From Azolla caroliniana (lineage: Eukaryota; Plantae; Polypodiophyta): 64,000 nucleotides of DNA. This document shows positions 4,459 to 55,345 of the stretch, one piece after another. The notes under the pieces were generated by a model that saw only the letters and a program-made list of their open reading frames with translations, had not been told where the DNA came from and made no database searches. The stretch is taken from the NCBI GenBank assembly GCA_043228905.1, contig JBHGNT010000021.1, forward strand, positions 11,532,001 through 11,596,000, written 5' to 3'. Made by a program: the position numbers and the translations under genes. Position 1 is the first letter of the stretch. Every line of letters begins with the position of its first letter.

Positions 4459-4539
4459 TCTCCGTGTTTACCTAATTGTCGCGTTTCCGAATAATCGACT
4501 ATGTACTTGGTTTCTTTCGCACACGCTTCCACACACGTA

Positions 4540-7360: not shown

Positions 7361-7540
7361 GACACGTCTTCTTCGGTTCAGGCTAACTCTGTTGTGGCTA
7401 TTGTTCAGGTTGGGCTACCGAAGTCAGCTCCGGCCGTTGCTGCTATGCAACTTCAGGTTCAGGTTTTGGAGTTGGGATCCACTCTAGTTAGTATTTGTTG
7501 GGTTTTGGGTGGTGTATGGTGATTTGGTTTCGGTTCCTGC

Positions 7541-7973
7541 TGTTAGGAATAGTACTAAAACAGAGATGGAATTAGTACTAAGAACAACAGTACTATTAGT
7601 ACTAAGAGGACGGGACTGCGTAAGATTCCCGAGAGGGGAAGTGAGAAGAGGAGAGAGAGAGAGATAACGAGAATGAAAGAGATGATGACAGCGGTTATAT
7701 ATATTATGTGAAAAGATAAGTACAAGCGGCTAAGAGGCTTAAGACTGGTGTTGAACCAATTTGGTTCAAAACAATGCCTTGTGCCTCCTTTTATAGTGTT
7801 TTTAGGAATAATCCTGAAACTTCTAGAATGTTCCAGAGAGATCTGGAATATACATCAATTTTCTATGATAAAATATAAATGAAAATAATATCCTACAAAA
7901 TACAATTCATAATCTAATGGTAAGAGCTCGACCCATGTAGCATAAAGTCATGGGTTCGAGTCTTGCCATGACA
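7541..7973 (-). repeat. 3' LTR of element A
   Basis: Direct repeat of 12783-13215; adjacent to the PPT. Confidence 0.98.
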
Positions 7974-7984
7974 CTATCTCCCCC

Positions 7985-10900
7985 TTAAAGACGACGAGTG
8001 GAACGAGTCGGCGCTAATTGCGGACCGGGTTTGTCCGGATACTTTCGGTGGAAATCAGCAAGAAGATCTTGTGCATTGGCAACATGCTCGACGGGTTCCC
8101 AAGTACGTTCGCTCGGACTATAACCGAGCCAATCGACCAAGTAATAAAGTTTGTTGCGAACAAGTTTGGAATCGAGGATGGCAGCAACTTCATACTCCGG
8201 GCCGGCGTCCAACTCCAGCGGGGGCGGCGGTGGTGTCACACGATCGGGAATGGTGTTTGCTTTATAAGGTTCAAGAAGAGAACAATGGAAAACCGGATGT
8301 ATCTGAAGCTGCGGAGGGAGATCCAGGCGGAAGGTGACATCATTAATCTTCCCCGTAATGCGGAAAGGACCGAGTCGTCGATAATCCAACTTGTCGCACG
8401 GTCGAGTAGTCTTGATGTGACGACGTAAGAGCCATACTCGATCTCCGATGGCAAAAGAGGAGGGAATCCGATGACGATCCGCATAAGTCTTCTGTGTGTG
8501 TTGAGCATGACGAAGGTGAGTAGAGAGATCCATCTGGATCTTGCGTAGCCTCTCCAAATGGTCCTCAGCACAAGGGTTGGTAGGTAGCTCCGGAGTGTCG
8601 ATCACCGACCAGCGAGGATGGAAACCGGTATAAGCGAGAAATGGGGAGACCCGAGTCGAGGAGTGAATAGCATTATTATACGCAAACTCCGCAAAGTGGA
8701 GAATCTCAGCCCAATCGTCCTGTTGATAACTCAGGAAACACCGGAGATATTGCTCCAACGTTTGGTTTGTTCGTTCTGCATGTCCGTCAGTTTGAGGATG
8801 GTAGCCGGAGGAGAGGTTGCAAGAGACCTTGAGCATCCTGAAGAGATGCTGCCAAAATTTGGAGACAAATTGCGGGCCTCGGTCACTGATAATACTGTCT
8901 GGTAGGCCATGATGCCGAAATACCTCACGCATAACAAGAGCGGCGGTTTCCTCGCTAGTGATGGCTTTAGTACATGGCACAAAATGTGCCATCTTCGTAT
9001 ATCGATCGACGACGGTTAGGATAGCATCGAACCCCTTCGAGACCGGCAGATCTGTGATAAAATCAAGACAAATAGACTGCCATGGCTTACTTGGAATTGG
9101 TAAAGGTTCCAACAAGCCATATGGATGGTGTCGTGGCATCTTTGCTCGGCAGCAAGCATCACAGGTCCGAACGTAGTCGTCAACAAAACGGCGCATGTGG
9201 GGCCACCAAAAAGATCGTTGCACTAACTCCAACGTCTTGGTACTACCGAAATGTCCCGCCGTATGGGTGTCGTGACAATGTTGGACGATTTGAAGGCGAC
9301 AAGAGCAATCGGGGACATATACGCGCTTTTTAAAGAATAACAAACCATCATGATATTCGAATTGTCGGTAGTCAATACCTGGTTGTTGAGACTGAGAACA
9401 GGATGCCCGAGAAGTATCAATGTGCGCCAGGATGTCTTGAGCAAAACTATCCGTCTTCAAGGTTGCACGTATGTCATCGGTAATCCGTGAATCCATCGGG
9501 GTGTGAAAAATCCGCGTCGTGTGCAATCGTGTTGGTCCCAAGATTACTTGCTTTTGATTATCAAATGTTGCGTCACCAGGACGAGGTGCAAGATATGAAC
9601 GCCGTGATAGTGCATCTGCTTTTCCTTGCTGCTTCCCCGGTCGATATGTGATTTCGAAGTTGAAACGCGTGAGGAATTGCGCCCACCGAGCTTGTCGTCG
9701 ATTTAGTACGCGAGCGTTCTGAAAATAAGCAAGATTTTTATGATCGCTAAAGACAATGACCTGATGTGGAGAGCCCTCTAAGAAATGCCGCCATTGTACA
9801 AATGAATCCACGATGGCTAATAACTCCTTGTCATGTATTTCGTAGTTGATTTCTGCGACATTGAATTTGCGCGAATGGAAAGCCACCGGATGCAACTCTT
9901 CTTTATCGCCTTGTTGAGAAAGGATGCTACCGAGGGCGAAATCTGATGCGTCGGCCTCCATGATGAATGGTTTGCTTGTATCCACATGAGCTAGAATCGG
10001 TGCTGATGTAAAGGCTTTCTTAAGATGCCGAAAAGCCATATCTGCTTCGATGGACCAAAGGAATGCTTGGCCCTTTTTCGTAAGTTGTGTGAGAGGTAAA
10101 ATAATCTTCGAGTAATCCTGTATAAACTTACGGTAGAAGTTAGCAAAGCCTAGAAAACATTGTACATCTCGTACCGACCGTGGAATTTGCCACTCTAGTA
10201 CAGTTTGGATTTTAGCTGGATCCATGGCGATGCCCTTTGAGGAGATGACGTAGCCTAGAAATTCCACTTGCTTGCAGTCAAAGCTACATTTCTCTAGCTT
10301 GGCATAAAGACCATTCTCGCGGAGTCGCTTTAGTACTAATAGTACATGAGAATCGTGCTCTTCCTGGGTCTTCGAATAAATCAACAAATCATCCAGATAA
10401 ATGATCAAACAGATATCCAAGAGGTCTCTGAATATATCATTTGCCATGTGTTGGAAGACTGCGGGTGCATTGGTTAGGCCAAACGGCATAACAGTATACT
10501 CGAAATGCCCATACTGCGTGCGAAAAGCGGTCTTCCACTCATCTCCCGGTCGGATCCGCACGAGATTATACGCTCCTCGTAGGTCGATTTTAGTAAAAAA
10601 CTTGGCACCATTAACTCGCTCTAAAAGACTTGATATAAGAGGAAGTGCATACCTATTCCGGATGGTGACTTTATTCAATCTGCGGTAATCAACGACAAGA
10701 CGAAGTGAGCCATCTTTCTTCTTGACAAAAAAGATGGGTGCACCGGCCGGAGATTTTGAATGACGGATGAACCCGCTTGCCAAGTTCTCCTCTATGTAGG
10801 CTCGAAGGACTTCTAACTCGGTGGGTGACAAGTTGTAAATTGGTCCCCATGGTGGCTCGGTTCCTGGTTGTAAATCGATGGGACAGTCATAGGGACGGTG

Positions 10901-11569
10901 ATGAGGAAGGGTACCGGCTTTTACCTTGTCAAATACATCGGCATAAGGATGATATTTTGCCGGAAGTTGTATTGAGGAGTCCTTCTTAATAGTGCTAGAA
11001 GGATGTACTGATATGGCAAATAGGAACATTGCCTCCTTGGGTCCTTCTTCGCGTAGTTGATGGAGTGAAATGGTCGAAACTCGGTGAGTTGATTCTTGGG
11101 GTGGTCGATATCGGACTTCTCTTGTTCTCCAATCTATGGCTGGATTATGTAATTCAAGCCAAGGTAATCCTAGGACAATGGGATGCTCTGGACTACTAAT
11201 TATATTAAATGATATTATACACACAAAACTACCTAGGACAACTTGAATGGGTTCTGATTCTTCTACAATATTCCCGGAAGCAATGGAACGACCATCAATG
11301 ACCACTACAGATGCGGGACAAGGAAGTTTTCTTAAGGATATCTGAGAAGCTTGGGCAAAATTTCGATCCATGAAACAGGAATTAGCTCCGGAATCTAAAA
11401 GTGCTAGGACGGGTACTGGGGGAGTACTTTTAGTACTAACAATGACTTGGGCTAGGAACACATTGCTAACTTGCTTGGAAGGAATGGAACCACTAATGGG
11501 CTGTACAGATCTAGGGCTGTTGTCCAACCAAATGGCTCCTATTTTGGCTGGACTCAATCGTTTAACTCT
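7985..11569 (-). CDS. pol: Gypsy Pol polyprotein (protease, RT, RNase H, integrase, chromodomain)
   Basis: LLDSGA; IIYLDDLLIYS; EADASDFA; H..H..CDAC; LDFITDLP/SDRGPQF/AERTNQ; YEVAAILDSK..YYLVDWLGY..TWEP. Frame is open from 11569 with no proximal ATG, so frameshift expression is expected. Confidence 0.97.
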   Translation of the reverse strand, partial: RVKRLSPAKIGAIWLDNSPRSVQPISGSIPSKQVSNVFLAQVIVSTKSTPPVPVLALLDSGANSCFMDRNFAQASQISLRKLPCPASVVVIDGRSIASGNIVEESEPIQVVLGSFVCIISFNIISSPEHPIVLGLPWLELHNPAIDWRTREVRYRPPQESTHRVSTISLHQLREEGPKEAMFLFAISVHPSSTIKKDSSIQLPAKYHPYADVFDKVKAGTLPHHRPYDCPIDLQPGTEPPWGPIYNLSPTELEVLRAYIEENLASGFIRHSKSPAGAPIFFVKKKDGSLRLVVDYRRLNKVTIRNRYALPLISSLLERVNGAKFFTKIDLRGAYNLVRIRPGDEWKTAFRTQYGHFEYTVMPFGLTNAPAVFQHMANDIFRDLLDICLIIYLDDLLIYSKTQEEHDSHVLLVLKRLRENGLYAKLEKCSFDCKQVEFLGYVISSKGIAMDPAKIQTVLEWQIPRSVRDVQCFLGFANFYRKFIQDYSKIILPLTQLTKKGQAFLWSIEADMAFRHLKKAFTSAPILAHVDTSKPFIMEADASDFALGSILSQQGDKEELHPVAFHSRKFNVAEINYEIHDKELLAIVDSFVQWRHFLEGSPHQVIVFSDHKNLAYFQNARVLNRRQARWAQFLTRFNFEITYRPGKQQGKADALSRRSYLAPRPGDATFDNQKQVILGPTRLHTTRIFHTPMDSRITDDIRATLKTDSFAQDILAHIDTSRASCSQSQQPGIDYRQFEYHDGLLFFKKRVYVPDCSCRLQIVQHCHDTHTAGHFGSTKTLELVQRSFWWPHMRRFVDDYVRTCDACCRAKMPRHHPYGLLEPLPIPSKPWQSICLDFITDLPVSKGFDAILTVVDRYTKMAHFVPCTKAITSEETAALVMREVFRHHGLPDSIISDRGPQFVSKFWQHLFRMLKVSCNLSSGYHPQTDGHAERTNQTLEQYLRCFLSYQQDDWAEILHFAEFAYNNAIHSSTRVSPFLAYTGFHPRWSVIDTPELPTNPCAEDHLERLRKIQMDLSTHLRHAQHTQKTYADRHRIPSSFAIGDRVWLLRRHIKTTRPCDKLDYRRLGPFRITGKINDVTFRLDLPPQLQIHPVFHCSLLEPYKANTIPDRVTPPPPPLELDAGPEYEVAAILDSKLVRNKLYYLVDWLGYSPSERTWEPVEHVANAQDLLADFHRKYPDKPGPQLAPTRSTRRL

Positions 11570-11573
11570 TCAT

Positions 11574-12713
11574 CTAATTGACTAAGGATTTCAAATTTAT
11601 TTGAGATATACTTGGGCTATTAGTACTATGAATACTATCTGACACTCTATTAGTACTATTAATACTATCAGACACTCCGAAGGGAAGAATTGACTCGGGT
11701 TTAGTACAGGCGACGATTTGATTTACCTGTCTTCTTGGCCTATGGGGACAATTGATGGCGATATGTCCTAGTCCACCGCAATAAAGACATAATCGATTGG
11801 CACGTCGTCGTTGCTTTTCTTCTTCCGATAACGGGCCGCGTCGACGCATGGTATCGATCTCCATCGGTGTCGAAGTATTTGCTTGAGGTATGTCTCGTGC
11901 AAACGGTTTAGCCGCGACTGCGGCGTAAGTGGGCTCTGGCCTAGAGCGTGGTATCTGTAATTGACGTTCTGAACGCCGTTCAAAAAGGCGGTTGTCACAT
12001 CGAACTGCTCGACTGATTGCCTCCGTAAGAGACTTTGGTTCTTCGGGGAAAGTTAGAAGTAGATCTTTGACATCGTTTCGCAAGCCATAGCGAAACTGCT
12101 CCATTAGTGCTTGATCATCCCAGGGTATATCTGAAGCAAGTAGGCGGAAATCCGCCGCGTAGGCAGAGGCTGGACGATCGCCTTGACGCAATCGCCGGAT
12201 CTTGTTGATCGCCGTCCTGATGCTGTCGGTGTCTCCAAAGCAGGCTTTAAACTCACCAATAAAATCTTCAAAGTTATTAAGTAAGGGTGATTGTTTTTCT
12301 AGAAGCGGAGCAAACCATGCCAAGGCTGAGCCGCTAAGTAGCGTGCCTATTAGGCCGACTCGAGATGCATCAGTGGGATATCGGGAAGGATGCATCTGGA
12401 TGACTAAGCGTACCTGATTAAGGAATCCCCGGAATTGCGAACGCGTTCCATCAAATTTCACAGGAAGTCCAATCTTGGGCTCTTTATGAAATCCTTGGGG
12501 ACTGGATCCTTGTTGTTGCAACGCTGCTTCGAGTTGTTGTACCCGTAACGCTAACTCCCCATGTTGTTGCTGCGTTTGTTGTTTTTCCAGAGCGATTTGT
12601 TGCAGATCCCCTATCAGCCGTTGGTTTTCTTGTTCCAGGGCAACAAACTTTTCTTTTAGGCACTGTAGCTCGGAGAAAACGGATTGGTATTCTTGGGCGC
12701 TAACAGTAGCCAT
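11574..12713 (-). CDS. gag: Gypsy Gag (coiled-coil N-terminus, retrotransposon capsid, CCHC knuckle)
   Basis: 379-aa ORF with EPKIGLPVKFDG, LRQG..ASAYAADF, TPMEID and CLYCGGLGHIAINC. Confidence 0.95.
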   Translation of the reverse strand: MATVSAQEYQSVFSELQCLKEKFVALEQENQRLIGDLQQIALEKQQTQQQHGELALRVQQLEAALQQQGSSPQGFHKEPKIGLPVKFDGTRSQFRGFLNQVRLVIQMHPSRYPTDASRVGLIGTLLSGSALAWFAPLLEKQSPLLNNFEDFIGEFKACFGDTDSIRTAINKIRRLRQGDRPASAYAADFRLLASDIPWDDQALMEQFRYGLRNDVKDLLLTFPEEPKSLTEAISRAVRCDNRLFERRSERQLQIPRSRPEPTYAAVAAKPFARDIPQANTSTPMEIDTMRRRGPLSEEEKQRRRANRLCLYCGGLGHIAINCPHRPRRQVNQIVACTKPESILPFGVSDSINSTNRVSDSIHSTNSPSISQINLKSLVN

Positions 12714-12768
12714 AGTATAGGGAAAAGGGTAGGAGGATGAGGGAGAGTGACAAGTAGGCTAGAGGAAA

Positions 12769-12782
12769 AAATTGGTTCAAAC
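12769..12782 (-). promoter_or_regulatory. Non-tRNA primer binding site (self-priming type)
   Basis: GTTTGAACCAATTT follows the 5' LTR with no TGG; 12 nt are complementary to the LTR sequence AAATTGGTTCAA (13004-12993). Confidence 0.8.
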
Positions 12783-13215
12783 TGTTAGGAATAGTACTAA
12801 AACAGAGATGGAATTAGTACTAAGAACAACAGTACTATTAGTACTAAGAGGACGGGACTGCGTAAGATTCCCGAGAGGGGAAGTGAGAAGAGGAGAGAGA
12901 GAGAGATAACGAGAATGAAAGAGATGATGACAGCGGTTATATATATTATGTGAAAAGATAAGTACAAGCGGCTAAGAGGCTTAAGACTGGTGTTGAACCA
13001 ATTTGGTTCAAAACAATGCCTTGTGCCTCCTTTTATAGTGTTTTTAGGAATAATCCTGAAACTTCTAGAATGTTCCAGAGAGATCTGGAATATACATCAA
13101 TTTTCTATGATAAAATATAAATGAAAATAATATCCTACAAAATACAATTCATAATCTAATGGTAAGAGCTCGACCCATGTAGCATAAAGTCATGGGTTCG
13201 AGTCTTGCCATGACA
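12783..13215 (-). repeat. 5' LTR of element A (TATAAAA at 13037-13031)
   Basis: Direct repeat of 7541-7973; TATA lies 33 nt upstream of the putative transcript start at 13004. Confidence 0.98.
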
Positions 13216-16200
13216 CCTGCCACTCTTCGCGTGGAATTGTTCTTCGGACCATTGGCTTCGACGTTGGTCGTGACGGCCGCCCCTTCTCCTTCCTTGGGGT
13301 TTTACGCTGGACGTCTGTGCTGGGTGTCAGGCATAAAACTGTAAACCACTGAGGCATGCGGGCGGCACTCTTGGTAACTCTACTACTAGATGGCTGAGAA
13401 GCCAATCCATCTTCAGTTTTTTCTCGCTTAACACATTGATAATGCTAGTATCATATTGCCAACAAAAATCGGCTTCCCATTTTGCACCCCTTGCAACTGA
13501 TCCCTTAGTGTGATTCCAGTGATCTACCCCCAATCGATTTTTTCCCCTTCGTATGTTGCTATAATGAACCCTGCTTGTTTGGGCATGCAGTAGGAGCGTG
13601 GACTTACACATGCGACTTCTAACAAAAACTTTGCCACTTCTTGAAAAAATTCGTCATTCTCCCCCTGTGTTCGGTAGGCTTTTGCCGATGGAGAGTATTC
13701 CCTGAAATACGATTGCAGAATGTCAACTTTGAGGGTATCCATTCCATTATACCTTTCTCTTTTCAAATTCAAGAATCGATGTACCTATTTATTGGTTATT
13801 TTGTCGATGTTGATTCTCATGATGATGTCTTCGACATGTGGGTGAGGTTCTACGTCTGGTACTCATGGGTACCCTTCTAAGCATTTCAACTGCAGCTATT
13901 GCCATAATCACTTAGACACTTGAATTGGCATTACGTCTATTTCGTCTTCGTAACTAAGGTCATTGTTGTCAGCGCTTGACTGAGAAAGCCCGAATGCTCA
14001 TGTGCTCTATTGCTGTTTATTCCATGCGGTGTTTTGTTCTTGGCGAGTGCTTTGTATAACGACGCTTCACGCTCTATTCACATGTAGACTTCTATGTTTT
14101 TCTATAACAAAGAATGTAGCCAGAGGAGTTTTTGTGGAAAGTTGGGCCATTTTCGAGATACAACGTTATAAATAGAATTTGCTATTATTAGCTCTTTAAT
14201 GACCACCACTCATAATGAATAATAAATCATTAGCATGCCTGTCCATTTATAGTCTAAAATGGAAAGTACCAAGAAGTAATGACGACAAGATTGATTTTTT
14301 TGTTAATTTTCTACCACAATGATTTATTTTTATTTTTATTAAATAACACTAATATTTACAATAATGTCCTCATCACCAACTTACGATGTAGTCGGCGGAC
14401 TACCCGTGTCGGCGCTTTGTTTAAATGGATTTGGCGGGGTCGGTCCTTGACATGGCTTGAGTTGGAGTCCGTTGACCCATTTTGGCAAGATCTCCCCAGC
14501 TAATGTGCCAACTTGATATGTACCATTATTGTTGTCGATGATCTAGTACGGGCCGGTCCATTGAATCTTAGCTTTCCCGGCATTGAACCCATCTTTGTTT
14601 GAAAAACCAATACTAGCTTGCCGACTTCAAACATCTTTTCTTTATTGTGTTTGTATCCTTAGTTCGCCTTTGTTTCTTTTCTAACTGACACATCGCTTGC
14701 AAACCGACTCTCCTCCAGCAACAACAATTGTTCCTTTCTGACTTCTCCTCATCCAGTCGTTCAGTTACTTGTATACTCAATATTGGAATTTGAAATTCAA
14801 TCGGCATAACTACATCGAATCCGAACGCCATTCGGAATGGAGTCGACTTGATCATTGTTTTGTAAGTGGTGCGATAAGCCCTATAAAGAGCACTATGCAG
14901 CTTTTGATCCTATTTTGTTCGATTCACATTGACTATCTTCCTCATAATCATCTACAATGTCTTATGGTTGATTCGGCCAACCCATTGGCTTGTGGATAAT
15001 ACAAAGTACTCCTTTTATGCACAACTGCATAATAAGTTGACAGTTCATGAACAATTTTGTTAACAAAATGGGTACCCTGATCACTTACTAACTTGATTGG
15101 GCAACCGAATCAACACCATATTATTCATAAAGAAAATTCGCTATCCACGCTATTGTATTATCATGAAGCGCTTTGGCTTCGACCCATTTCGTGCAGTAGT
15201 CGGTAGCGACTATGATATACCTATTGCTTGTTCTTGTTGCCGCAAGTTTGAATGATATTTTAGAGGTGAATATGCCGGACTGGTGCCATGGTTTTGTTAA
15301 GTAAATTGTGAATGGCAAATCATACAATGAGTACGCAAACTACATTCCATCGTAGAATGCTCCGTATTGAGACACGTAGTGCATTGCACGGCTCGTCGGA
15401 ATCTTAACTCTTCTTCCACTGCAGGTAAAGACCTGTGTAATGCTGCCATAGTCATAGTGTTATTGCTTTGGGTTCTATCCATTGCTAGTGCTTTATCAAT
15501 CTCTTTCTCTAGTGATTGATTCTTGAAATCAAACAAAGTTTAAAGCTTTTTGGAGTGGCTCACGCAATGCCTTCAAGAATATGCCTTTCAGCTCTTCCTC
15601 TGAAATTGGTCGCACAATGTAGAGATGAAAGATTCTGAAATCGAATGACAAACTGCAGCACTATTTTATGAGGCTCCTAATATGCCACATAAAACTGACT
15701 AATTAGATCTTTCTATGCGATTTGTCGATGAATTAATAGAATGAATTTTGTAGTTAATAGTTCGAAAGATTCGAATGCCCTCGGCCCATTCTGGGCATAC
15801 CAATTCGCCAACGGCCCATTGAGCGATAATACAAACTTGGTAATTTTAGACTTTTCTTCCTCCATAGCCGACAATTGTCATGAAACATGGTTCACCTGCC
15901 ATGTTGCAAGAAAATTGCACACATGCACTTCCACATCGGCTGCATCCCGATACTTTGATCCTCTTCCCAAATGTTGTAAAAATACCTTTGATCGGACTGC
16001 TCCTCATCCGAGTTACTATAAGTTAGATCGAGAATTGCACTCCATTCCCCTTTAGCTTCTTGTTGGATCTGGTTAACAACTTCCCAACTCTCAATAATAC
16101 CACCTTTTGCAAGCCGAGTCTTCGATCTCGTGCATGGTCTTTTGCTGCCTACAATTCGCTCTGGACTAGACGACATCCATTCCTCTTGTTCTCTGCCTAT

Positions 16201-17962: not shown

Positions 17963-18004
<42 letters not shown>

Positions 18005-21000
18005 AGATAGAGGTTGAACCCTTGACTTTAGTTTTACGAAACAAGATACATCACCATTAGGATAACTCAGATCTTTGGTTAAAAGTTTCTTTTTTACTTA
18101 CATCATTTGCCTCCCTTACACAAGCCCAACTATAGGCTTTTATAGGTCTCTCCATGCAAAAACCATGGGCTAAAACCACGACCTGAAACCATGGGCTAGA
18201 ACCATGGTTTTGTGCCCACAGTTTCTATATGTTTGCTTCCTACAAAATACTGAATATAAAAAGAAAATATACAAATTTAAAAGTTGTCTCCTATCTTGGA
18301 GGTGCAAGGTTCAAGCCTTGCTTTCACCCCTATTATGTATCCACTTAAATGTTACTAGGCTTTAGTCTTATTTTTATATTTACGATTGAGTGCACATCAC
18401 ACATGAACATGCTTAACTTTACATCTAGCTTTTCTTTTACGATTCTCATTTCAGTCCTATTTACAACATGCTACCATATGTGTGTGGCCTTCACCCCTTT
18501 CACACGTGCACATTGTAGCTTCTCGATTTCGTTCATTGCACACAATTTTCACACCGTTGCCGAAAATCTTTACGACATCCACCCCTACCAAACTGCACGT
18601 CCTCCAGTACGTGCCAAGAAGAGAGAGTGTTAGATTTCGGATACAGTGATCAATCAAATTCCTCCATGTCCTCGTGTACATAACTCAAGTTTGTAGGTTC
18701 TGTCCTACTATCTTCATCGTCAAGGTGATTGAGGTCAGGATCCTCGTCTTGTCTTTTCTTGAAAATCTTTACTCTTTTTCCTGCAATGGGCATGCCCAAC
18801 ATTGATCCATCTAGCTCTGCAAGGTGGTATGTGGCATTGTCGTTAGCACTTATCACTATATACAGTCCGAACCATCTTCTTGCGAACTTCCTTGTTGTAC
18901 TGTGTTGATTGTCAAGGCTGTTGTCATAGACCAATACCCAATCTCCTTCTTCGATCTTCTTGGGATGTTGTCGATGCGTCTTGTTGAACCGAATTTTGTT
19001 CTTCACTCGGGCTGCCTCCATCATCTTTCGTGCTTTTTCTAGACCTTTAGGTCTCCTTTCAAGTTTTCTTATCCGTGCCGCTAATAATTCTTCTCAGCTC
19101 ATCTCATTCTCCTATGGTATCGCTACCCATGAGGCGATCGTCCTTTCGATGGGCATTACCGGCTTTTGTCCATACATAAGCTCCGTTGGCATATACCCTG
19201 TCACTGAACTATGTGTAGTTTCTGTCGGCCCACAAGGCATAGGGCAATAGTCATGGCCAATTCCCGACTCAACCATTGCATGCCCGTATGACGGTTTTGA
19301 CGATTGGTCCATGCCCTCGCGCGATCATCCCATTCGCTTTTGGATTGTAGGCAGTCGTGAGGGAGAGCTTCATGCCTAGTCTTTCAAAGAGCTCTGTTGC
19401 TTCATGTGCATCCAACTATCTTTCCAACACATCCATATCGGTAAACAACCTCTTTGAGTAAAAATTTGCAAACAACCGACGTCATCTTATTTGTCAAGGC
19501 TCGTCCTTCTACTTGATTTGTCAAGTCTTCTCTCACTAGAGCTAAGTCCTTCATTTGTCTCAGTCCCATTGGCATCGAGACCAGATCCACCATCCATTTG
19601 AAGTGTATGGTGAGCGGGTATGTCGGCCATAGCTCATCACGATGACGTATATTCCAATGTACTTGACAAGTTTCGCATGTGGACACGAAATGGAGTACAT
19701 CTTTGTACATGCTTGGTCACCAGTACTTCTCCTTCAACTTTTCGAATGTCGCCCATGTTCCACTATAACATGCCCAAGGACTCTCATGAAATTCGGTCAT
19801 CAACGTCACTTGCTCTTCTTTCTTTACCACCACTCGACGTTGCATTCCTGTCCTTCTTTTTGGGTGACGCCAAAGGAATCCTCCCCTCAAGAAGTATTGG
19901 TAAGCTTTCTTCTGGATTCGTAGAGCCTCCTCCTTCGTCAATGAAGCATCCGTCGTCATTGTTCTTAAGAATCTGCCGATCAGTAACCACTCTCCTTCGT
20001 ACTTGTCCTCGTTGAAGGCGTGTAAGGTTAGCATGCCCTTGTCCCCGATAGTCGAGCCATCTTGAAGAAGTCGAGGGTGATGTCTTCATCATCTGAAACC
20101 ATGTCACCTTCATTCTCAAATCTTTCCCTCAACAGCATGTCAGCCATGGTGTTCTTCTTCCTTGCAATGTGGCAGATCTCTGAGCATAAAGACTTAATAT
20201 AGGCGATCCACCTTAGCATAGCTAGATTTGGGGTCGCACATCCTGAGATCATCCCGAGGATTGGGAGACAATCTGTCTCAATTATCACTTTTGACCCGAT
20301 CAGGTAGTCTTTGTATGTCTTCACTGCCGACACAATACCCCAAAGTTCCCGTTTGACTTGGGTGTATCCTCGTTGTCGTTCGCTGAGAACTTTTGCTCCG
20401 AACCGTATGGCATACCGGACATTATCTTCTCCTTCTTGGTTGATGACCATCCCAATTCCGGTTGGGCTCATATCTACACTCACATAAATTGGCTTCCATT
20501 CGGTATAGTCGGCCTTTCTTAGTGTTGGAGCTTCAAGAAGTAGTTTCTTCAATCTTCGCATCGCGTTTGTGTGCTCGTCTCACCATTCGAACTTCATTCT
20601 TTTCTTTAGCAATCCATATAAAGGCTCGGCGACATGAGCGTAGTGTGGAATCTAGATATGATAAAACGCGCATGCTCCAAGGAACCTTCGAACCTCCGTT
20701 TGGTTTACACATTCTTCTTTCATATCTTGGATCGTGTTCAGCTTGGAACCTTCCGGCCATATGCTCTGCACAAGTGACCTACCACCAAGATCTCTGGTTG
20801 CCCGAATGGGGATTTTTCTCCCGAAAATGTCAAATTCGCATCTTCGAGCTTTTGGAGCACCTTCTCACAATATTTCATATGATTCATGACGAACTTCCTA
20901 CACCCTTCCTTATCTTCCGATTCATATTTCTCCTCATCCGAACATCCTTTTATCGGAATATCATCCAAGAATGGCATTTGTGATGTTTGGGATGTAATCC

Positions 21001-40975: not shown

Positions 40976-43468
40976 GCTCAAAAGTTAAAACAAATGTTAA
41001 GATAAATGTAAATACTTGAGTTATATCAAGAAGATGAATGGGATGCTCCTCGTATTGACTCCTTCCAACACGTTTCCTGCATAAACCTTTCTTATTGGGT
41101 GAAACCCTACTCTCATTAGTCCAAAATATTGTGATTATATCATTGATTTCTGATGTTATGGGTCTCATTGGCTTACATCTTGTTGTTAGCTTTAGTGGAC
41201 TAGTTCTTTCACCCAAGGAAACAATCCAGTTCAATGTGCTATACACACTTTTTCCACTAACACCAATTATTGTAGATAGCATAGTAATGTTAATATCGTC
41301 AACATCACTATTAAGTAACATAATTAGACTAGACCTTTTTAAGACAAGCTCATCTTCTGACCTGCTCAAGGATACGAAACTATTACGGAGATTATTTACT
41401 AGTACAGATGTTATGTTTGCATTAAGACCATCATAATCAACTAACTCCTTTATTGATGGATCATTTAATATTCCATAAAGTACCCCACCTTCTTGTCTTC
41501 ATTGCTGATGTGTTTGGTTTGAGCATTGAAATAGTCTACAACCTTTCTCTCTATTATAATAGTCTCATTACTTCTATTCTCAGTGATATTTAGACCTATA
41601 TCGCAAACAATACTATCTTTACCTTTAGTGAGTGTGGCTTTCGTATCCTTCAACAATTGACGATGTTTTTTTTCTGCCCAATACTTTCGTATCGCTTGTT
41701 GTGTCCTGATAGCGTCATCCCTGTCTTGATGATCATTGAGGGGTAATTCTAAACACCCTCCTTCCCCTTCCATTTGGCTTGACGGGTTTAAACCCTAATT
41801 TTCCCCAAAAAAAGACACGTATCAAAGATGGCTATGGGCAACAACAATACACAAAAATATTCCGCAATACACAAGATTATACACAACAATACACAGGATA
41901 ATCAATAGACAGAATAGTTATTGCAATCTAGGACCAAACAGTGGCGGTAATCCAGGGCCGAATAGTGGTGGCAACTGTGTAGAATGGCGGCAGTGGAGGA
42001 GCGAACTCCGTTTGCTCGAACAGTTTTGGCAATCTAAGACCGAACAATGGCGACAACTAAGTGTAGAATGATGGCAATGGAGGAGTGAATTCCGTTGGAT
42101 CAAACAGTGGCAGATGATGCTTGGAACGCATTATGACGACAACTAAGAGTAGAATGGCACTAGTGGAGAAGGAGTGAACTCCCTCAGATCGAAAAATGGC
42201 AGCAATCCAGGACCGAATAGTAGCAGCAACTGAGTGTAGAATGATGGCAATGGATGATTGAACTCCGTCAAATCGAAAAGTGACAACAATCCAGGACCGA
42301 ACAGTAGCGGCAACTGAGTGTGGAATGATGGCAATGGAAGAGTGAACTCTGTCAGATCAAACAATAGCAAATGATGCTTGGAATGCACAATGATGGCAAC
42401 TGAGAGTACAATGGCGGTAGTGGAGGAGGAGTGCACTCCCTCAAATCGAAAAGTGGTAGCAATACATGACCGAATAGTAGCGGCAACGTGTAGAATGATG
42501 GCAATAGATGAGTGAACTCCGTCAAATCGAAAAGTGACAACAATCCAGGACCGAACAGTAGCGGCAACTGAGTCTGGAATGATGGCAATGGAGGAGTGAA
42601 CTCTGTCAGATCGAACAGTAGCAGATGATGCTTGGAATGCACAGTGATGGCAACTGAGAGTACAATGGCGGTAGTGGAGAAGGAGTGCACTCCCTCAGAT
42701 CGAAAAGTGGCAGCAATACACAACCGAACAGTAGCAGGCAACATGTAGAATGATGGCAATGGATGAGTGAACTCCATCAAATCGAAAAGTGGCAACAAAC
42801 CAGGACTTAACAGTAGCGGCAACTAAGTGTAGACTGATGGCAATGGACGAGTGAACTCCGTCAAATCAAACAGTGGCAGATGATGCTTGGAACGCATATG
42901 AAGGCAACTAAGCGTAGAATGGCGGCAATGGAGAAGGAGTTAACTCCGTCGTATCGAAAAGTGGCAGAAATATACGACCTTCATAGTAGCGGCAATTGAG
43001 TGTAGAGTGGCGGCAATCGAGGAGTGAACTTGGTAGATGATGCTTGGACTGAATAGTGGCGGCAACTGAGTGTAGAATGGCGGGAATGGAGGAGTGAACT
43101 CCGTCGGATTGAACAATGGTAGATGATACTTGGACCGCACAGTGGCGGCAATGGAGGAGTAGACTCAATAGGGTTTAGCAATAGTTGTAGTAATCTAATC
43201 CAGGATACTCAACCAAAGATGGCCCACGTGATGTGCAAAGGATTATGTATATTGGAGCTAGGAATTCGGTATATAATTTATGGTGCACATATCAATTTAT
43301 GTTGCACATTTATGGTGCTCCTTTATATAATTAAAACTCTCAACTATTTTTAATGGTAGCTTTTTGCATAGCTAATTTAACAATGGTAGCTTTTTGCAAA
43401 AAATAACTATTTATCAATGGTAGCATTTTGCATCACTAGCTATGTCAAGGACATAGCTAATTGTTTCC
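40975..43468 (-). mobile_element. Probable DNA-transposon fragment (Mutator-like terminus) with a broken ORF and an internal satellite
   Basis: End reads GGAAAC on the minus strand; three AATGGTAGC(T/A)TTTTGCA subterminal repeats at 43353-43431; 10-bp hairpin at 43437-43459; broken ORF from 41773 to ~40980. Confidence 0.45.
41915..43165. repeat. Tandem satellite, ~84-87-bp monomer, about 14 copies, with ~254-bp higher-order period
   Basis: GTAGAATG(A/G)..GAGTGAACTCC anchors at 41979, 42063, 42149, 42236 and onward; near-identical trimers at 42261, 42515 and 42770. Confidence 0.9.
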
Positions 43469-44354: not shown

Positions 44355-45044
44355 TGTCGTAGTGTATTCCACACACTACGTGAAAACCATAAAATAATAT
44401 ATCCGAATTTAGATACATATAAATAAATAAATAATATATCAAAAGAATTTATCACATGCATAGGGTAGGATTCAAACCATGCACCTCCATGTAGATAAAC
44501 CCCAACTTTACCATTGTAATAACTTATCTTTAGTGTTATAAATATAGATTTAATACGTATAAGACCTTTATTAAAAGGTAAAAATCATGTATTCTTTAGA
44601 GTGTGAATATTTTATTTACACGTGACATTAAAAGTGACTCATGCACATCTAGCGTGCACGAGCCTTATATTTAGGAAATGACAAAACATCACATGCACAT
44701 TTAGTGTGCATGGGCACTTTAGGTGAAAAAGCATGAAGCCATGCTTAGCCTCTTCCATCTTTATATAAGGAGGAGAAAAATATGTATATGGTTGTTGATT
44801 AATATACAAGTTTTTGATCAATCTAATATATTCATGGGATTCACGAATTTTGCCATCTAATTGCTCTTATAATCTAAATATTGTTTTAAAATACACTAAA
44901 CTCGTGGGATTCACGAGATTACTATCTTACTTCTCTTCCTATTATTCATAACTAGCCTTAAGTTGTATTCCTCTTCCTCCTAGTCCAAAACCTCGGCGGT
45001 TCCCACCCGACTCACGCAACGATCCGGAGCCGAAGGGCTCGACA
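44355..45044 (+). repeat. 5' LTR of element B
   Basis: Direct repeat of 50716-51405. Confidence 0.97.
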
Positions 45045-45050
45045 GCGTCT

Positions 45051-45068
45051 TGGTGAACCCGACGTGAA
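45051..45068 (+). promoter_or_regulatory. PBS complementary to the tRNA-Trp 3' end
   Basis: TGGTGAACCCGACGTGAA matches the complement of the plant tRNA-Trp 3' end TTCACGTCGGGTTCACCA (recalled from memory). Confidence 0.85.
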
Positions 45069-45084
45069 AACGGGTGGCAAGGAG

Positions 45085-47127
45085 ATGGAAAATCAACAAG
45101 AGGCTAGCAACATGATGATGATGTTCGAGCGCATGCTACAAGAACAACGCGCGATGTCGGAGATAGCGGCCTCAGTGGAGCGGCTCGTGCAACGAAACGG
45201 GCAATTCAACGGGAAAGACGTGTCGCGGTATCTTCGGGATTACAAGGCGGAGATGCTACGGTGCGGAATATCGGAAGGACTGCAAGTGACGTCCTTCAAC
45301 CGGGTGGCGACCGACGGGCTTCAAGCAAGCATCCATGGGCTACGACAGCAAAATCCGACATAGGAGGCGTTTGAAGTAGAGCTAAAGAGGACGTTCGCCA
45401 TCGAGGATTCCTCCAAGGCGACGCGAAGGGGATTCGAAGATTGGGTGGAGACGCCGGACAAGGGATTGAAGGTCGTTGATGTGTTTTCGGCATTCGAAAG
45501 CCGGTTCGGGAGGTTGTCCGCGAGAGATCAAGCTATCCTCGTACCGGACAAGGTGATCATGTTCTTGCGAGCCGTGGACGTCCGGGACCGGAAAGATCTC
45601 AGAGTGCTCTTGGAGGACACGACCACGGAGAGCGGCCTCACCGAAACATGGGAAAGCGTGTGGGATATCGTCGCGCGATACACGAAGAGGGGGCAATGGC
45701 TTGCCGACGAGGAAAAGAGGGTTTCGGAACCGATTCCGAAACCGAGAACCGGATTGGAAGACCATCAACTGAGGGCTCGAGAGACTACAACCGAGAAGGG
45801 GATTGATGCATCTACGGTGGAGCAACTATTGAAGGAGATGGAGAATCTGAAGATCACGATGGTGAAGAAGTCGGATGACCGCACCACAAGCTCCAAGTAT
45901 ACGGACCGACGGTGCATATGGTGCGATAGCGCCGAACACGATCGGAGGGATTGCGACGAGCATAAGGAGGCGCTACGGGGGGATCTCATCTACTACGAGG
46001 GAAACCGGATTCATTCGATGGACTCTCGGAAGCCACTCCGACCGAACTTCCGGAAAGGCGGCATGAAGAAGGTGCTCGAGGAGGAATTGGCGGCGAGAAG
46101 CAACTATGCGACAACCGCGGGAATATGTGTCGGGGAGTCATCGAGAGCAAAGACGTCTTTTTGGCCGGAAGTTCTAGAAAACACCGAGAAAACCGACTCC
46201 AACGAGATCCGAAGCACCGCGGAAGGCGTCCGGGAAGCTACGGGATGGGAGTGCCCTGTCGACAAGAATAGCGTATACGCCCTGTGTCAATTGCATAAGG
46301 TGTATGTGGACGAGAAACGACGACGAATGGAGGATGCGGCCGGTCCATCGAAGATACCGGAAAGCTGGAACTCCGGAGGTAAGGGAAAAGAAAAGGCGAC
46401 TCCGGCATTCAAGCTCGCCTCGGACATAGAACAACAAACCGACTTGAAAAGAGTGTTCGAGGAAAGAATCTTGGATAGCCGGGTAGATTTCTCGCTTCGG
46501 GAGCTACTCGGAATAGCAAAGAAGGAGTTCCACGATCTTCTCGTGGATCTTGTGAAGCGAAAAAGACAAAGTACGGAGGAAAATGCTCCAAGGGTGAATG
46601 CGAACACCGTTTTAATGAACGACACCGAAGTGGAGGACGAAATTCCGAACTCCCACTATACAAGGCCACATTGGGCACGCGCGACTACGGAGACTCCGGT
46701 CCGAATCGGCAACATCAAAGAACCCGTGCTAGCACTGATTGATCACGGATTGGAGATCAACTTGATGTCCAAGGAGTTCTACCGGAAGGGGAAGTGGCCT
46801 ATTAACACCAACCATGGATGGAAGATTCGGGCGGCCACCAAAGCAACGGAAGATCTATTTGCGGCTTGTCCGGATGTGACGGTGAAGATCGGGGATGTCG
46901 AGATTGACCAAAATTTCTTCGTGCAAGATGAGGTTTCACATTCCGTCATCCTCGGCCAACCCTTTATCACGGCATCATGGATGGAGACGAAGGTGCTCGA
47001 TAGCGGTGCGGCTTTTGCGCGAATTCGGAGCCAAAACGGTGGGAAATCCGTCCAATTCCTAACGGTGCCGGCAAATCACGAAAGGAACAAGAGGGAACTC
47101 TTGTCCCAAGTGAGAATGGATTTTTAA
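45085..47127 (+). pseudogene. gag: gag-protease ORF of element B with an internal TAG at 45361
   Basis: GQFNGKDVSRYL; knuckle CIWCDSAEHDRRDC; protease-like ALIDHGLEINLM..VILGQPF; same frame either side of the stop. Confidence 0.88.
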
Positions 47128-50100
47128 AGCGGACTGTTGCGGAGTGGGGAAGTGATAGTCCGAGAAGCCCTGATACCCCACACAGGAAGAAAACTCTCGG
47201 AGCAAAACATGTACGAATCGGTCCGGATGGGGCATCTACGTACACGACCGTAACCGGAGGATTGAAGAAAGGATACTGACAAGTGGAGGATAAGTTGCTG
47301 TCGGCATCAATAATAAAAGAAGATGAAGAAATCGTGGGGATAGTCGAGGAAGTGTTCTATGGGAGCACGCTACAACGACTTGAAGAGCTTGCGGAAGATA
47401 AAAGCCAAGGGAACCGGGTAGTCCCGGTGGAATCGGTCGAGATGTACGAGATCATTGCGAAAATGGAGCCGGATACGCTCCGTAAAGAAGAAGCAATGGT
47501 AAGTACGAAATACAAGACCATGGAGAAGAAGGTGAAACCGGCCGCGGGACCACTACCCGCCGATAGCGAACAAAAGAGGAAAGAAGTCTCAGGAGATCCG
47601 ACACTTCGGAAGTCCGTGGATATCGGACATGCCTTCACGGATGAGACCCGGAAGAAACTTCGGATCGGTGGAGGTGGGTTCCTATTATAGAAAGAAGAAG
47701 AACGGTTTCGCGAGATGTTGGAGCAACACGGCAAAGCGTTTGCATTTACATCAAGGGAGATAGGGTGCGTCGATCCGAGAATAGTGGAGCCGATGGTGAT
47801 CTTTACGATTGACCATGTACTGTGGAATCTGAAGCCGATTCCGGTGCCACGAGTGCATATTCCGAAAGTCATTGACTTGCTCAAGGAGAAGGTGGCGATG
47901 GGGATTCTAGAGCCATCAACTGCTCCGTACTCAAATTGATGGTTTACGGTTCCGAAGAAGAATGGGTCACTCCGATTTATCCAAGACTTGCAACCGGTGA
48001 ATAAGGTCACGATCCGGAACTCGGGAGTCGGTCCGATAGTGGACGAATTTGCGGAAGCTTTTGCCGGTCGTGCGATATACTCCATCGGAGACCTATACTC
48101 GGGGTATGACCAATTCCAACTAGCCGTGGAGAGCCGAGACATCACAACCATGCGAACACCGATAGGATTAGTCCGAATGTGCACACTACCACAAGGAGCG
48201 ACAAACTCGGTTGCTCATATGATGAACGCGATGAACAAGGTGCTCCGAGACTGCATTCCGGAGATAACGATGCCGTTCCTCGATGACATTCCGATGAAAG
48301 GATGCGCGGTAGAAGAAAAAGATGATACTATGGATGATTGGGGATGCCGAAAGTTCGTGGTCGACCATATTCATGATTGCGAGAAAGTGTTGCGAAAGCT
48401 AGAAGATGTGCACCTAACACTTTCCGGGGAGAAATCGGCATTCGGGCAAGAAGAAATATTGGTGGTCGGACATCTATGTGGGCCCTACGGTCGAAGACCG
48501 TCACCAACAAAGATCGATGCGATTCAAGCTATGGAGGAAGTATGCGAGTCAACATCCGAAGTCCGAAGGTTTCTCGGTGCATGTGCATTCTATCACATAT
48601 GGATTCCGCACTATGCACATATAGCGGATCCACTCTACCACTTGTTGCGGAAAGGTAAGAAATTCGAATGGAAATCGGAACACACCAAAGCCATGAAGAA
48701 ATTGAAGAAGACACTTCGGAGGGCGGAAGCACTTAAGAAACTAAGCTATGACCAACCGATCATAGTAACGGTTGATACAAGTCCAACCGGTATCGGGTGG
48801 GTCATCAATCAAGCCGACTCGGATGGTTCGCGGTATCCGATCCGATTCGGAGCAAAGGTTCTCAACGAAAGGCAACGTGAATATGCACAAGTCAAAAGAG
48901 AACTGTGGGGAGTCGTGTCGGCGATAAAATCGGATCGGGATTATTTGATCGGAGCCGAAGTGGTGATCGAGACGGATTGTCTTCCGATACTCGGGATGAT
49001 GCGGTGTTGTACGATACCAGATGTAGCTATGCTAAGGTGGGTTGCATGTGTCAAGTCGCTTAATCCGGAGGTTCGACACATCTCGGGGAAGGAAAACGCG
49101 GTAGCGGATATGTTATCAAGGGCTCGGTTCGGAGACGACATAACCGAATCGGATAATGAAGAAGTTTCCGAAGACTACTTCGCGTCGGAGCACATATGCC
49201 GAGTGAACGTAATCCGAGAATTTCGGGAAGAAGAATATGAGGGAGAAAGTTTGATGATCGGAAAGATGTTACAAGAGGCCGAGGACTCAACAAACGATAA
49301 AGGAAGAAGAGCCGAGATCCGAAGGAAGAAGAGGCAAGTCCAAAAGTTCTTCTTGGAAAACAGATTAATATGGAGGGCGCCGAAAAGACCGGATGGTATA
49401 CCACTTCGAGTAGTCGGGACAAAAGAGCAACGAAACCGGATAATGTCCGAGTTTCACGAATCCGATTGGGCTGGACACCGAGGAACATGGGCAACATTTG
49501 TGAAGATCAAGCAAAATTATTGGTGGAAGAAAATGTACAAAGATATCGCGGAGTTTACGGAAAGCTGCGAGAAATGTCAAGTCTACTCCGGGGTTCGACA
49601 TCGAGATGAGTTACATCCGACATTCTCACCGACAATCAACTTCAAGTGGATGGTCGACATAGTGGCCATGCCGACCGGGATCGGACAAAAGAAATACTTG
49701 GTATTAGCTCGGGAAGATCTCACGAATCAAGTAGAAGGTCGAGCGCTTTAGAGGAAAATGTGTTCCGCGGTATGCCAATTTCTTTTGGAGGAAGTATTTT
49801 GCAGGTACGGGTGCGTAGGCCAAGTGATTGCAGACCGGGGAGAACTCGACTCGGTCAAAGCTAGGGGATTCTTCGCCAAACACGTAGTTCGGTTATCGCT
49901 GACAACGGCATACAATCCGGAGGCCAACGGGAAAATCGAACGAGGACATAGTCCGATCGTAAAAGCACTTGCGAAGGCATGCGATGGAAAGGTGAAGGAC
50001 TGGCCGCAGATGCTTCCATATGCACTATGGGCGGATCGGACGACGCATAGCTCCATAACCGGTTACATGCCGGCAGAACTCATGACCGGACAAGCACCGG

Positions 50101-50715
50101 TAATGCCGACGGAAACCGCGATCGCAACATGGACAGTGCTACCGTGGAAGGAAGAGATGAGCCGGGAAGAACTACTAGCGGTCCGGATACGACAACTAGA
50201 GGGAAGACCGGCAGACATAGCGGAAGCAATACGCCGACACAAGAAGCACGATTAAGGAACAAAAGCCGGTTCGACACAAAGCACCGACTACGACCGAGGA
50301 GGATTGAAGAAGGAGACTGGGTGATCGTCTATGACAGTAGTTTGGACCATCAACATACAACGATGCGGAAATTCGCGAAAAGGTGGTTTGGGCCATAAAA
50401 GGTTCGGAAAGTCTTCGACAACGGAACGTACCGACTGTCCGAGTTGGATGGAACAATACTACGAGTGCCTATAGCCGGGAAGCGGGTGAAGATTTTCAAG
50501 AAGCGGACCGGCGACAAACCCTATGTGATCCAAGCCAAGGCCGACTACGAGGAGCAATCAGATGAAGACCACGGGGATGCGGGAAGCGAAGAACGTGAAT
50601 TACAACTCATAGTCGACATAAGGGGAGAATCGGAGGAAGCTTTGGGTGAAGACGGATATGGGGAATCGAGAACTTTGGCACATACCGGAGGATGTGCGGG
50701 TTCGGAGGGGGCGAG
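47118..50715 (+). pseudogene. pol: pol (RT, RNase H, integrase) of element B in the -1 frame, with several stops
   Basis: DLYSGYDQ, LPQG, FLDDIP, VDTSPTGIG, ETDCLP, H..H..CEKC, VDIVAMP/ADRGE/KIERGH; stops at 47277, 47688, 47938, 49749 and 50396, plus a frameshift near 50240. Confidence 0.92.
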
Positions 50716-51405
50716 TGTCGTAGTGTATTCCACACACTACGTGAAAACCATAAAATAATATATCCGAATTTAGATACATATAAATAAATAAATAATATAT
50801 CAAAAGAATTTATCACATGCATAGGGTAGGATTCAAACCATGCACCTCCATGTAGATAAACCCCAACTTTACCATTGTAATAACTTATCTTTAGTGTTAT
50901 AAATATAGATTTAATACGTATAAGACCTTTATTAAAAGGTAAAAATCATGTATTCTTTAGAGTGTGAATATTTTATTTACACGTGACATTAAAAGTGACT
51001 CATGCACATCTAGCGTGCACGAGCCTTATATTTAGGAAATGACAAAACATCACATGCACATTTAGTGTGCATGGGCACTTTAGGTGAAAAAGCATGAAGC
51101 CATGCTTAGCCTCTTCCATCTTTATATAAGGAGGAGAAAAATATGTATATGGTTGTTGATTAATATACAAGTTTTTGATCAATCTAATATATTCGTGGGA
51201 TTCACGAATTTTGCCATCTAATTGCTCTTATAATCTAAATATTGTTTTAAAATACACTAAACTCGTGGGATTCACGAGATTACTATCTTACTTCTCTTCC
51301 TATTATTCATAACTAGCCTTAAGTTGTATTCCTCTTCCTCCTAGTCCAAAACCTCGGCGGTTCCCACCCGACTCACGCAACGATCCGGAGCCGAAGGGCT
51401 CGACA
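50716..51405 (+). repeat. 3' LTR of element B
   Basis: Direct repeat of 44355-45044. Confidence 0.97.
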
Positions 51406-54436: not shown

Positions 54437-55345
54437 TGTCGGTCCTCTATTTACGTTGGTCTTAATCCTGCCAAGTTAAAATCCAGAAACCATAATTGCC
54501 AGAACCAAGAATAAAAGATAGAGTGATGGAAGAAGGATATAAGAGAACACAAGAAGAAAGGAACGAAATGATTAGACAAGAATGAGTGTATAAGAGAGAA
54601 AGAGAAAGAATATGCAATGAGAGTTAAAGACTGGTGTTGATTCGAATTGATTTGAGAAGACATGTTATGTCTTTATTTATAGGTTCCTATACAATAGCTT
54701 GGAGATTTCTATAATGTTCTAGAATGTTCTTGACCTAGAATATTCTAAGATGTTCTAGGAAATACTAGAACATTCTAGAATGATCCAGATTTTTTACAAT
54801 AATCAATATATTACAAAAGTAGCTTTTATCCTCTGATATGACAATAAGTTATCTTAATGGTTAGGGTTTTCAATTATGGATTACACGATCCTAGGTTTAA
54901 GTCCAAGTGATGCCGTAATGGTCATGTGTTCATGACACTATCCCTCCTTCAAGAACAACGAATGGAAGTTGGTCAACATTGTAGGGTTGGGTTTGTTTAG
55001 ATAGTGGCTATGGAAGTCGTCGGCAAGAGCTTGAGCATTACAAACGTTATCGACAAGTTCCCAAGTGTGATCACTTGGAGGATAGCCAAGCCAATCGACA
55101 AGATAATAGAGCTTATTGTGCACAATCTTAGAATCAAGAATAGAAACTACCTTGTATTCAGGGCCGTCATCAAGTTGGATACAAAGCAGAGGTGGCACGA
55201 CACGGTTAGGAATTCAAGAGGTGCAGCAAGGTTGCAAAAGAGAGCTATGAAAGACTGGGTGAAGCCGCATGTGTGCAGGAAGGTTAAGACGAAATGTTGC
55301 ATCATTAATCTGCGATGCGATTACCAAAGGGCCTAAGCGTTGTGT
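54437..55345 (-). mobile_element. Truncated older Tcn1-like chromovirus 3' end (element D): integrase tail, chromodomain, PPT, LTR ~54437-54937
   Basis: GPEYKVVSILDSKIVHNKLYYLVDWLGY..TWE closely matches element A; PPT AAGGAGGGATAG; LTR starts TGTCATG like A and shares AAGACTGGTGTTGA. Confidence 0.88.

Follow-up and report, generated by a model that had tools for sequence, protein, structure and literature searches.

A degenerate tRNA-type A/B-box pair lies antisense in the U3 of protein-coding gypsy retrotransposons of Azolla caroliniana

Promoters for RNA polymerase III (Pol III) are already known from long terminal repeats (LTRs) in miniature elements, where they serve self-transcription, and in a few retroviruses, where they give rise to miRNAs. 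The closest described systems are the Helenus TRIMs, or TRIMp3, non-coding elements of 311-1263 bp with one family in Selaginella (Kojima 2024, PMC10886601, here from the excerpts available). Like the modules reported below, Helenus LTRs contain tRNA-derived sequence that is conserved at boxes A and B and is mostly not a functional tRNA (PMC10886601). However, the tRNA-like part of Helenus-1_SMo lies in the sense direction and is proposed to drive transcription (PMC10886601), whereas the modules here lie antisense in U3, and the non-coding Helenus elements contrast with hosts that are coding Tcn1 and Phygy elements of 5.7-7 kb with a TATA box, one of which (element A, 5675 bp) has intact gag and pol. 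Other Repbase LTRs with tRNA fragments are mentioned in the same paper, whose analysis, in the available excerpts, is limited to TRIMs. Cassandra and Ajax also have a Pol III promoter sequence fixed in both LTRs, but it is derived from 5S rRNA, the elements are non-autonomous, and the promoter of Cassandra transcribes the element itself (PMC10886601).

A second precedent comes from simian foamy viruses, whose LTRs contain Pol III miRNA genes, as was shown experimentally (Kincaid 2014, PMC3993851, excerpts). The likeness lies in A/B-box Pol III units within the LTR of an autonomous, Pol II-driven retroelement and in a hairpin RNA such as is predicted for the subfamily of element A. The viral units, however, have terminators at the base of the hairpin (PMC3993851), whereas A lacks a terminator in its LTR, the hairpin is absent in elements D and B, and A is known from sequence alone. 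The model for the function proposed below comes from tDNA and TFIIIC-only (ETC) sites, host loci in yeasts and animals whose B boxes bind TFIIIC without Pol III, a binding that is impaired on methylated DNA (PMC11346459, excerpts). In comparison, what is described here is a predicted TFIIIC site, and T56 stands in three of the seven complete U3 copies.

Chromodomain targeting of heterochromatin has been suggested for RLG1 of Physcomitrium patens, which, compared by description, resembles the family of A in being very abundant (PMC7466625, excerpts). No tRNA-like LTR module is mentioned for Tcn1, Phygy or RLG1 in the available portions of Neumann 2019 (PMC6317226), Novikova 2010 (PMC2864245) and PMC7466625, the last of which does not contain the word tRNA at all. 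An incomplete coverage of the literature turned up no publication in which autonomous plant gypsy elements have a tRNA-type module antisense in their LTRs. What appears to be new is thus that plant gypsy elements which are abundant and code for proteins contain an A/B-box pair that is reversed and, by the comparisons below, selectively kept. Because such a pair cannot transcribe the element, some other role of the Pol III machinery is indicated.

LTR retrotransposons pack the window, the 64,000-nucleotide stretch of DNA analysed here. Among them, element A (7541-13215, minus strand, 5675 bp) is an intact and very young Tcn1-type chromovirus that belongs to a very abundant family. It has a chromodomain, a self-priming site and a 5-bp target site duplication (TSD), CCTGC, at 7536-7540 and 13216-13220, and this combination is described for the Tcn1 clade (PMC6317226, excerpts). 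The features of A and of its modules are as follows.

7541-7973, minus strand: 3' LTR, 433 bp, TG...CA, with no differences from the 5' LTR
7974-7986, minus strand: polypurine tract (PPT)
7985-11569, minus strand: pol ORF (PR-RT-RH-INT-chromodomain), 1194 aa, no internal stop
11574-12758, minus strand: gag ORF, 394 aa, no internal stop
12770-12782, minus strand: primer site of the self-priming type, complementary over 11 nt to the part of the LTR where the RNA is predicted to begin (7751-7761 / 12993-13003)
12783-13215, minus strand: 5' LTR, identical to the 3' LTR
7789-7795, minus strand: TATA box, putative in function, of the Pol II promoter predicted for A itself; this is the copy in the 3' LTR, and it lies inward of the module by about 110 nt
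7903-7973, plus strand, antisense to A: tRNA-derived module of the 3' LTR at the outer end of U3, with tRNA position 1 at 7903 and T8 at 7910
13145-13215, plus strand: module of the 5' LTR, same as the 3' LTR copy and pointing outward into the flank
7910-7920, plus strand: A box of the 3' LTR (the 5' LTR copy starts at 13152)
7953-7963, plus strand: B box of the 3' LTR, from G52 to position 62, with C56 intact

The A-box/B-box pair is present in both LTRs of A with the sequence and positions that the earlier note had reported. In the whole window, GGTTCGANYC is matched exactly only by its B box, GGTTCGAGTC at 7953-7962 and 13195-13204. Once a single mismatch is tolerated, a B box on its own is at chance level, with 26 occurrences in the window against 25.2 expected, and the signal is therefore the A+B pair. 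The distance from T8 to G53 is 44 nt and agrees without gaps with the register seen in class I tRNAs whose variable loop is 5 nt long, in keeping with the tRNA-like spacing that had been claimed.

Three further elements of the window bear on the claim that the same antisense module sits in the U3 of B, C and D. Element D is a second Tcn1 subfamily (LTR starting at 54937, minus strand), and its LTR and that of A are homologues that can be weakly aligned. Element B (44355-51405, plus strand) has LTRs that differ at 1 of 690 positions, a 4-bp TSD of the form NCGN (GCGT) and a primer site beginning TGG at 45051, which we take to be of the tRNA-Trp type. A 4-bp NCGN TSD and a tRNA-Trp primer site are features of the Phygy clade (PMC6317226, excerpts). 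Element C is a degenerate Phygy-type element, a decayed relative of B. The PPTs of A, B and D are of the ordinary kind, and no insertion was seen immediately upstream of the module in A or D, which leaves a role of the module as a landing pad without support in these elements.

54843-54914, plus strand: module in the U3 of D, whose B box reads T56 A57
44460-44528, minus strand: module in the U3 of B's 5' LTR (44355-45044), with the A box at 44521-44511 and the B box, with T56, at 44478-44468
44444-44441, minus strand: T4 run inside B's 5' LTR, about 84 nt after position 1
50821-50889, minus strand: module in B's 3' LTR (50716-51405), same as the 5' LTR module
18285-18328, plus strand: 3' half-module in the U3 of C, whose B box, GGTTCAAGCC, occupies 18308-18317; model R1, a profile that combines 10 modules and was not trained on C's U3, detects it at E=0.053
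18002-18072, minus strand: second complete A+B module, on the sense strand of C, within the C LTR and downstream of the TATA box there

The claim thus stands for B and D, and for C it is reduced to the 3' half: the antisense pair in C's U3 has lost the A-box GG and is not significant, with 71 of 200 shuffles scoring as high. The second C module has an A box close to that of D, and no counterpart of it was found in B.

All pairs were scored with a template of fixed tRNA invariant positions, a textbook consensus that was not trained on these copies. The antisense strand reaches 23.6 bits in A, 18.2 in D and 15.2 in B (0, 1 and 2 of 200 dinucleotide shuffles as high, respectively) against 7.8, 7.8 and 1.4 on the sense strand, which bears out both the strand bias and the excess over shuffled LTRs that had been predicted for these elements. 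Across the window there are four matches of at least 20 bits against 0.47 expected from shuffled windows. Two of the four are the LTRs of A; the remaining two (40278 and 17519) look like chance, the match at 40278 scoring 23.3 bits within copia-like sequence and lacking the A-box GG. Comparison with two copia LTRs as controls was divided: one control gave 4.6 bits (148 of 200 shuffles), whereas the other (27615 and 31163, plus strand) gave 15.6 bits in the sense direction (8 of 200), with a near-perfect A-box-like word and a poor B box.

Relatives outside the window came from a metagenome scan with an integrase alignment, in which the best 80 of 582 matches were kept, giving 79 loci (L001-L079) on the Tcn1 side. 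Among these best 80 of 582, the 3' LTR begins with the antisense pair in all four loci with more than 54% integrase identity (L001, L002, L003 and L014), where it scores 20.7-23.3 bits with 0 of 200 shuffles as high in each. Of the 75 more distant loci from the same best 80 of 582 matches, 51 extend at least 500 nt downstream, a flank in which the presence of an LTR is not established for all; at least 18 bits was reached antisense in 1 of the 51 (L060, 19.4 bits) and in the sense direction in none. Model R1 gave no match in L004-L013 and L015-L079, and it found no free SINE-like copy in the window or in L001-L079. Scans of viral contigs found nothing, and pattern scans of genome contigs returned first no match and then four, all unrelated and tRNA/SINE-like. 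All told, antisense bias and a significant pair are found in seven of seven module-bearing LTR sequences (A, D, B, L001, L002, L003 and L014; 0-2 of 200 shuffles), and the distance from T8 to G53, 44 nt in A, B and L001 and 45 in D, stays within 43-46 nt across the modules. The module accordingly occurs in two distant gypsy clades, Tcn1 (A, D) and Phygy (B), as the earlier note had proposed.

An integrase tree was drawn for 24 of the 79 loci together with A and D. In it, A with L002 and L014 and D with L001 form one supported clade, and L003 groups with L004, L006 and L007, which have no module. The presence of the module takes two changes within Tcn1 on this tree: a single old gain with one loss, or else a gain on two occasions, besides the Phygy occurrence. 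Such a pattern would fit convergent capture, as the earlier note proposed, as well as an old single capture with later losses or exchange. L004, L006 and L007, the sisters of module-bearing L003, are without it, so related Tcn1 elements can dispense with the module. Downstream of pol, these three loci have tandem repeats in U3 at the place taken by the module in A, D and L003.

Some tRNA-like pairs lie elsewhere in the outside loci. An extra antisense A+B pair is found in both tandem D-type elements of L001 (1000-1065 and 6322-6395, minus strand; 20.7 and 25.2 bits), within the pol frame in the variable protease-RT linker; the boxes of the two are alike and the spacer has diverged, and element A has no such match. 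In L037 (10251-10600) and L074 (4335-4667), both on the minus strand, there are repeats whose first 68 nt are common with the neighbouring chromovirus LTR (L025, L027, L037, L074) and which continue into a sense tRNA-like A+B pair of 28.3 and 23.9 bits. These repeats make up a candidate, probably fungal, Helenus-like partner of a gypsy element. The predicted RNA start and self-priming region of A (7750-7771) and of L001 (about 4470-4495) is a near-palindrome with B-box-like GGTTCRA words on both strands.

It had also been proposed that the boxes are more conserved than their surroundings, and both levels of comparison agree with this. Between subfamilies, A and L001 are identical at 11 of 13 invariant positions against 20 of 43 elsewhere (p=0.015), and A and D at 11 of 13 against 17 of 43 (p=0.005); these Tcn1 subfamilies have integrases of about 70% identity, and most of the likeness in their inter-box and flanking U3 is gone. 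The corresponding test of A against B is partly circular, because B was noticed through its boxes. Within families, variation was taken from the Logan contigs of four runs aligned to A or B, excluding contigs less than 80% alike; contig depth in these data is not copy number. In the B family, where all 35 variants were considered, none of the 14 invariant positions is variable, compared with 29 of the remaining 85 (p≈0.005, or 0.0045 when stratified by GC/AT), and all four D-stem positions 10-13, inside the A box, vary. For the A family, among the 40 of 181 variants listed, the majority letters at 7912 and 7946 shift toward the tRNA consensus: G makes up 67-89% of depth at 7912 in four of four runs, completing a full match to the A box TRGYNNARYGG, and 97-99% at 7946, again in four of four, where the variable-loop-like stretch then reads AGGTC. 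Most of the A family, among these same listed variants, therefore has a better A box than the copy of A in the window.

The conserved positions coincide with tRNA invariants in both boxes, and the pattern argues that the boxes are selectively kept. C56 is critical for TFIIIC binding. It is present in A, L001, L003 and L014, whereas B, D and L002 have T56 (3 of the 7 complete U3 modules), and no C variant at position 56 was found at 4% or more in the B family across the four runs. An AATGGT core is common to A, D, L001, L002, L014, B and the second C module, which exceeds what the tRNA consensus demands.

The shape of a tRNA has not been kept along with the boxes. Neither an Rfam search nor ARAGORN (window and 72 of 83 loci) matched the module to a tRNA, a form of detection suggested in the earlier note, and a functional tRNA gene is rejected on this ground and for want of a cloverleaf. 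On a 10-row alignment, cloverleaf pairing reaches 50.7% of cells, with 100 of 500 shuffles as high; the acceptor stem pairs in 37% of cells, the anticodon stem in 40%, the inner pairs of the D stem in 59% and the T stem in 74%, and no consensus fold of the alignment was found. Since the cloverleaf is not kept, the constraint is on the promoter letters and not on RNA shape. What is seen, then, is a degenerate tRNA-type box pair, antisense in U3, kept at its promoter positions and with the cloverleaf lost. The ancestry in a tRNA or SINE head that had been suggested is supported by the template scores, the register and the conservation.

We tentatively prefer, at a little short of an even chance, the reading that these protein-coding gypsy elements hold a degenerate tRNA-type A/B pair backwards in their U3, that it probably came from a tRNA gene or SINE head, and that it is probably kept as a dock for TFIIIC rather than for an RNA. 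TFIIIC sites at tDNA and ETC loci can act as chromatin barriers. By analogy, TFIIIC would bind the boxes, and TFIIIB would load on the AT-rich middle of U3 where the upstream signals allow. The docked TFIIIC would then make the chromatin accessible, or would act as a barrier that separates the flank from the element's Pol II TATA box, which lies inward by about 110 nt. Either effect would be useful to chromodomain elements landing in heterochromatin, possibly shielding the element's own promoter from silencing. The backward orientation would be favoured because any Pol III firing then points away from the Pol II promoter and not through it. Since U3 is copied into both LTRs, every new insertion would bring two sites, the first at its 5' edge and the second where its 3' LTR meets the internal region. 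Against the dock stand T56 in three of the seven complete U3 modules, the missing U3 A box of C and the absence of the module from L004, L006 and L007; the second C module, being sense, also breaks the strand rule. If TFIIIC does bind, the continued expression of chromodomain elements inserted into heterochromatin would have an explanation open to test, and a major repeat family would be a source of chromatin boundary sites.

A broader version of the TFIIIC reading is more speculative and, in our estimate, rather unlikely as a whole. Unrelated gypsy clades may have repeatedly captured tRNA promoters, mostly reversed (the U3 of Tcn1 and Phygy, the second site in the C LTR, the protease-RT linker of L001), as portable TFIIIC barriers that let heterochromatin-inserting elements stay transcribable. 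Thousands of mobile boundary sites would have been seeded in the genome in this way, and what was captured as a head would, in the youngest subfamily, have been turned into a Pol III hairpin.

The strongest alternative, to which we give about one chance in four, is that the module is an active antisense Pol III gene. Its product would be either a short RNA, with a length of about 85 nt in B and folded as a 21-bp hairpin in the subfamily of A, or a read-through into the PPT and integrase, with small-RNA self-regulation after the manner of foamy viruses. Two features of A bear on this.

7874-7898, plus strand: TATAAA (-29) and CAA (-7 to -5), counted from tRNA position 1, in the A copy, an upstream layout like that of plant tRNA genes, in AT-rich U3
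7917-7969, plus strand: long hairpin, not a cloverleaf, with 21-nt arms (7917-7937 and 7949-7969) and an 11-nt loop, in the A subfamily only

Plant tRNA genes have an upstream TATA near -35 and CAA at -7 to -3 (PMC3082873, excerpts), and the signals of A favour an active gene. Against this, C replaces the T of the TATA at 7874 in 65-91% of the A family's depth, among the 40 of 181 variants listed. The hairpin also speaks for a transcript in the A subfamily, with z=-5.97 in A and -2.75 in L014 and a like fold in L002, but it is absent in D, B, L001 and L003 (z between -1.3 and +0.7). As to termination, B has a T4 run inside the LTR at about +84, whereas A, D and L001 have none there, and in B it is T56 that counts against an active promoter. 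Reading on from the module of A, one meets the first T4 after about 155 nt, in the flank, in the case of the 5' LTR, and only at 9327 in that of the 3' LTR. The T4-free antisense tail is 1354 nt in A and 977 nt in L001, against 17 nt in L002 and 23 nt in L014; since the long tail is not common to these relatives, a selected T4-free read-through was rejected. The foamy virus LTRs remain a precedent on the side of an active gene (PMC3993851).

A use unconnected with Pol III is considerably less probable, at roughly one chance in eight. Here the two motifs would be Pol II enhancer sites for other factors, or the inverted repeat of the A subfamily would act in reverse transcription or integration near the PPT. 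U3 is the usual enhancer region of LTRs. Such roles would tolerate T56 and could account for the sharing of the AATGGT core beyond what a tRNA consensus demands, and the sense strand of the A module folds too (z=-3.97). They fit poorly with the constant 43-46 nt spacing and with conserved positions that are the tRNA invariants in both boxes, and the hairpin is limited to one subfamily.

About as improbable, and ranked marginally lower still, is a neutral relic: an ancestral LTR would once have received a tRNA pseudogene or a SINE head, which has been handed down since without function. The lost cloverleaf is what a relic would show, as are the C-to-T decay at position 56 in B, D and L002, the loss in L004, L006 and L007 and the half-loss in C, and 'not a few' Repbase LTRs are said to have tRNA fragments (PMC10886601, excerpts). 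A relic, however, does not predict that the boxes persist where the inter-box and flanking U3 of Tcn1 subfamilies has largely diverged, or that the B family varies at none of 14 invariant positions and at 29 of 85 others.

Least credible by far is a tRNA mimic acting as decoy, primer or packaging signal, raised in the earlier note, which the pairing of the inner D stem and T stem favours but which is unsupported because the acceptor and anticodon stems pair weakly, shuffles reach the overall pairing, there is no consensus structure or match by Rfam or ARAGORN, and the module strand is opposite to the genomic RNA of elements of which one, A, is self-priming.

Two minor observations may be added. 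In element B, the 8 nt that follow the 5' LTR (45045-45052, the spacer with the beginning of the primer site) recur without a difference in the target DNA that follows the 3' LTR (51406-51413), possibly a sign of homology-assisted target choice on top of the NCGN preference. Copia-like sequence of the window harbours, at 41931-43161, a complex tandem array whose unit measures about 84/255 nt.
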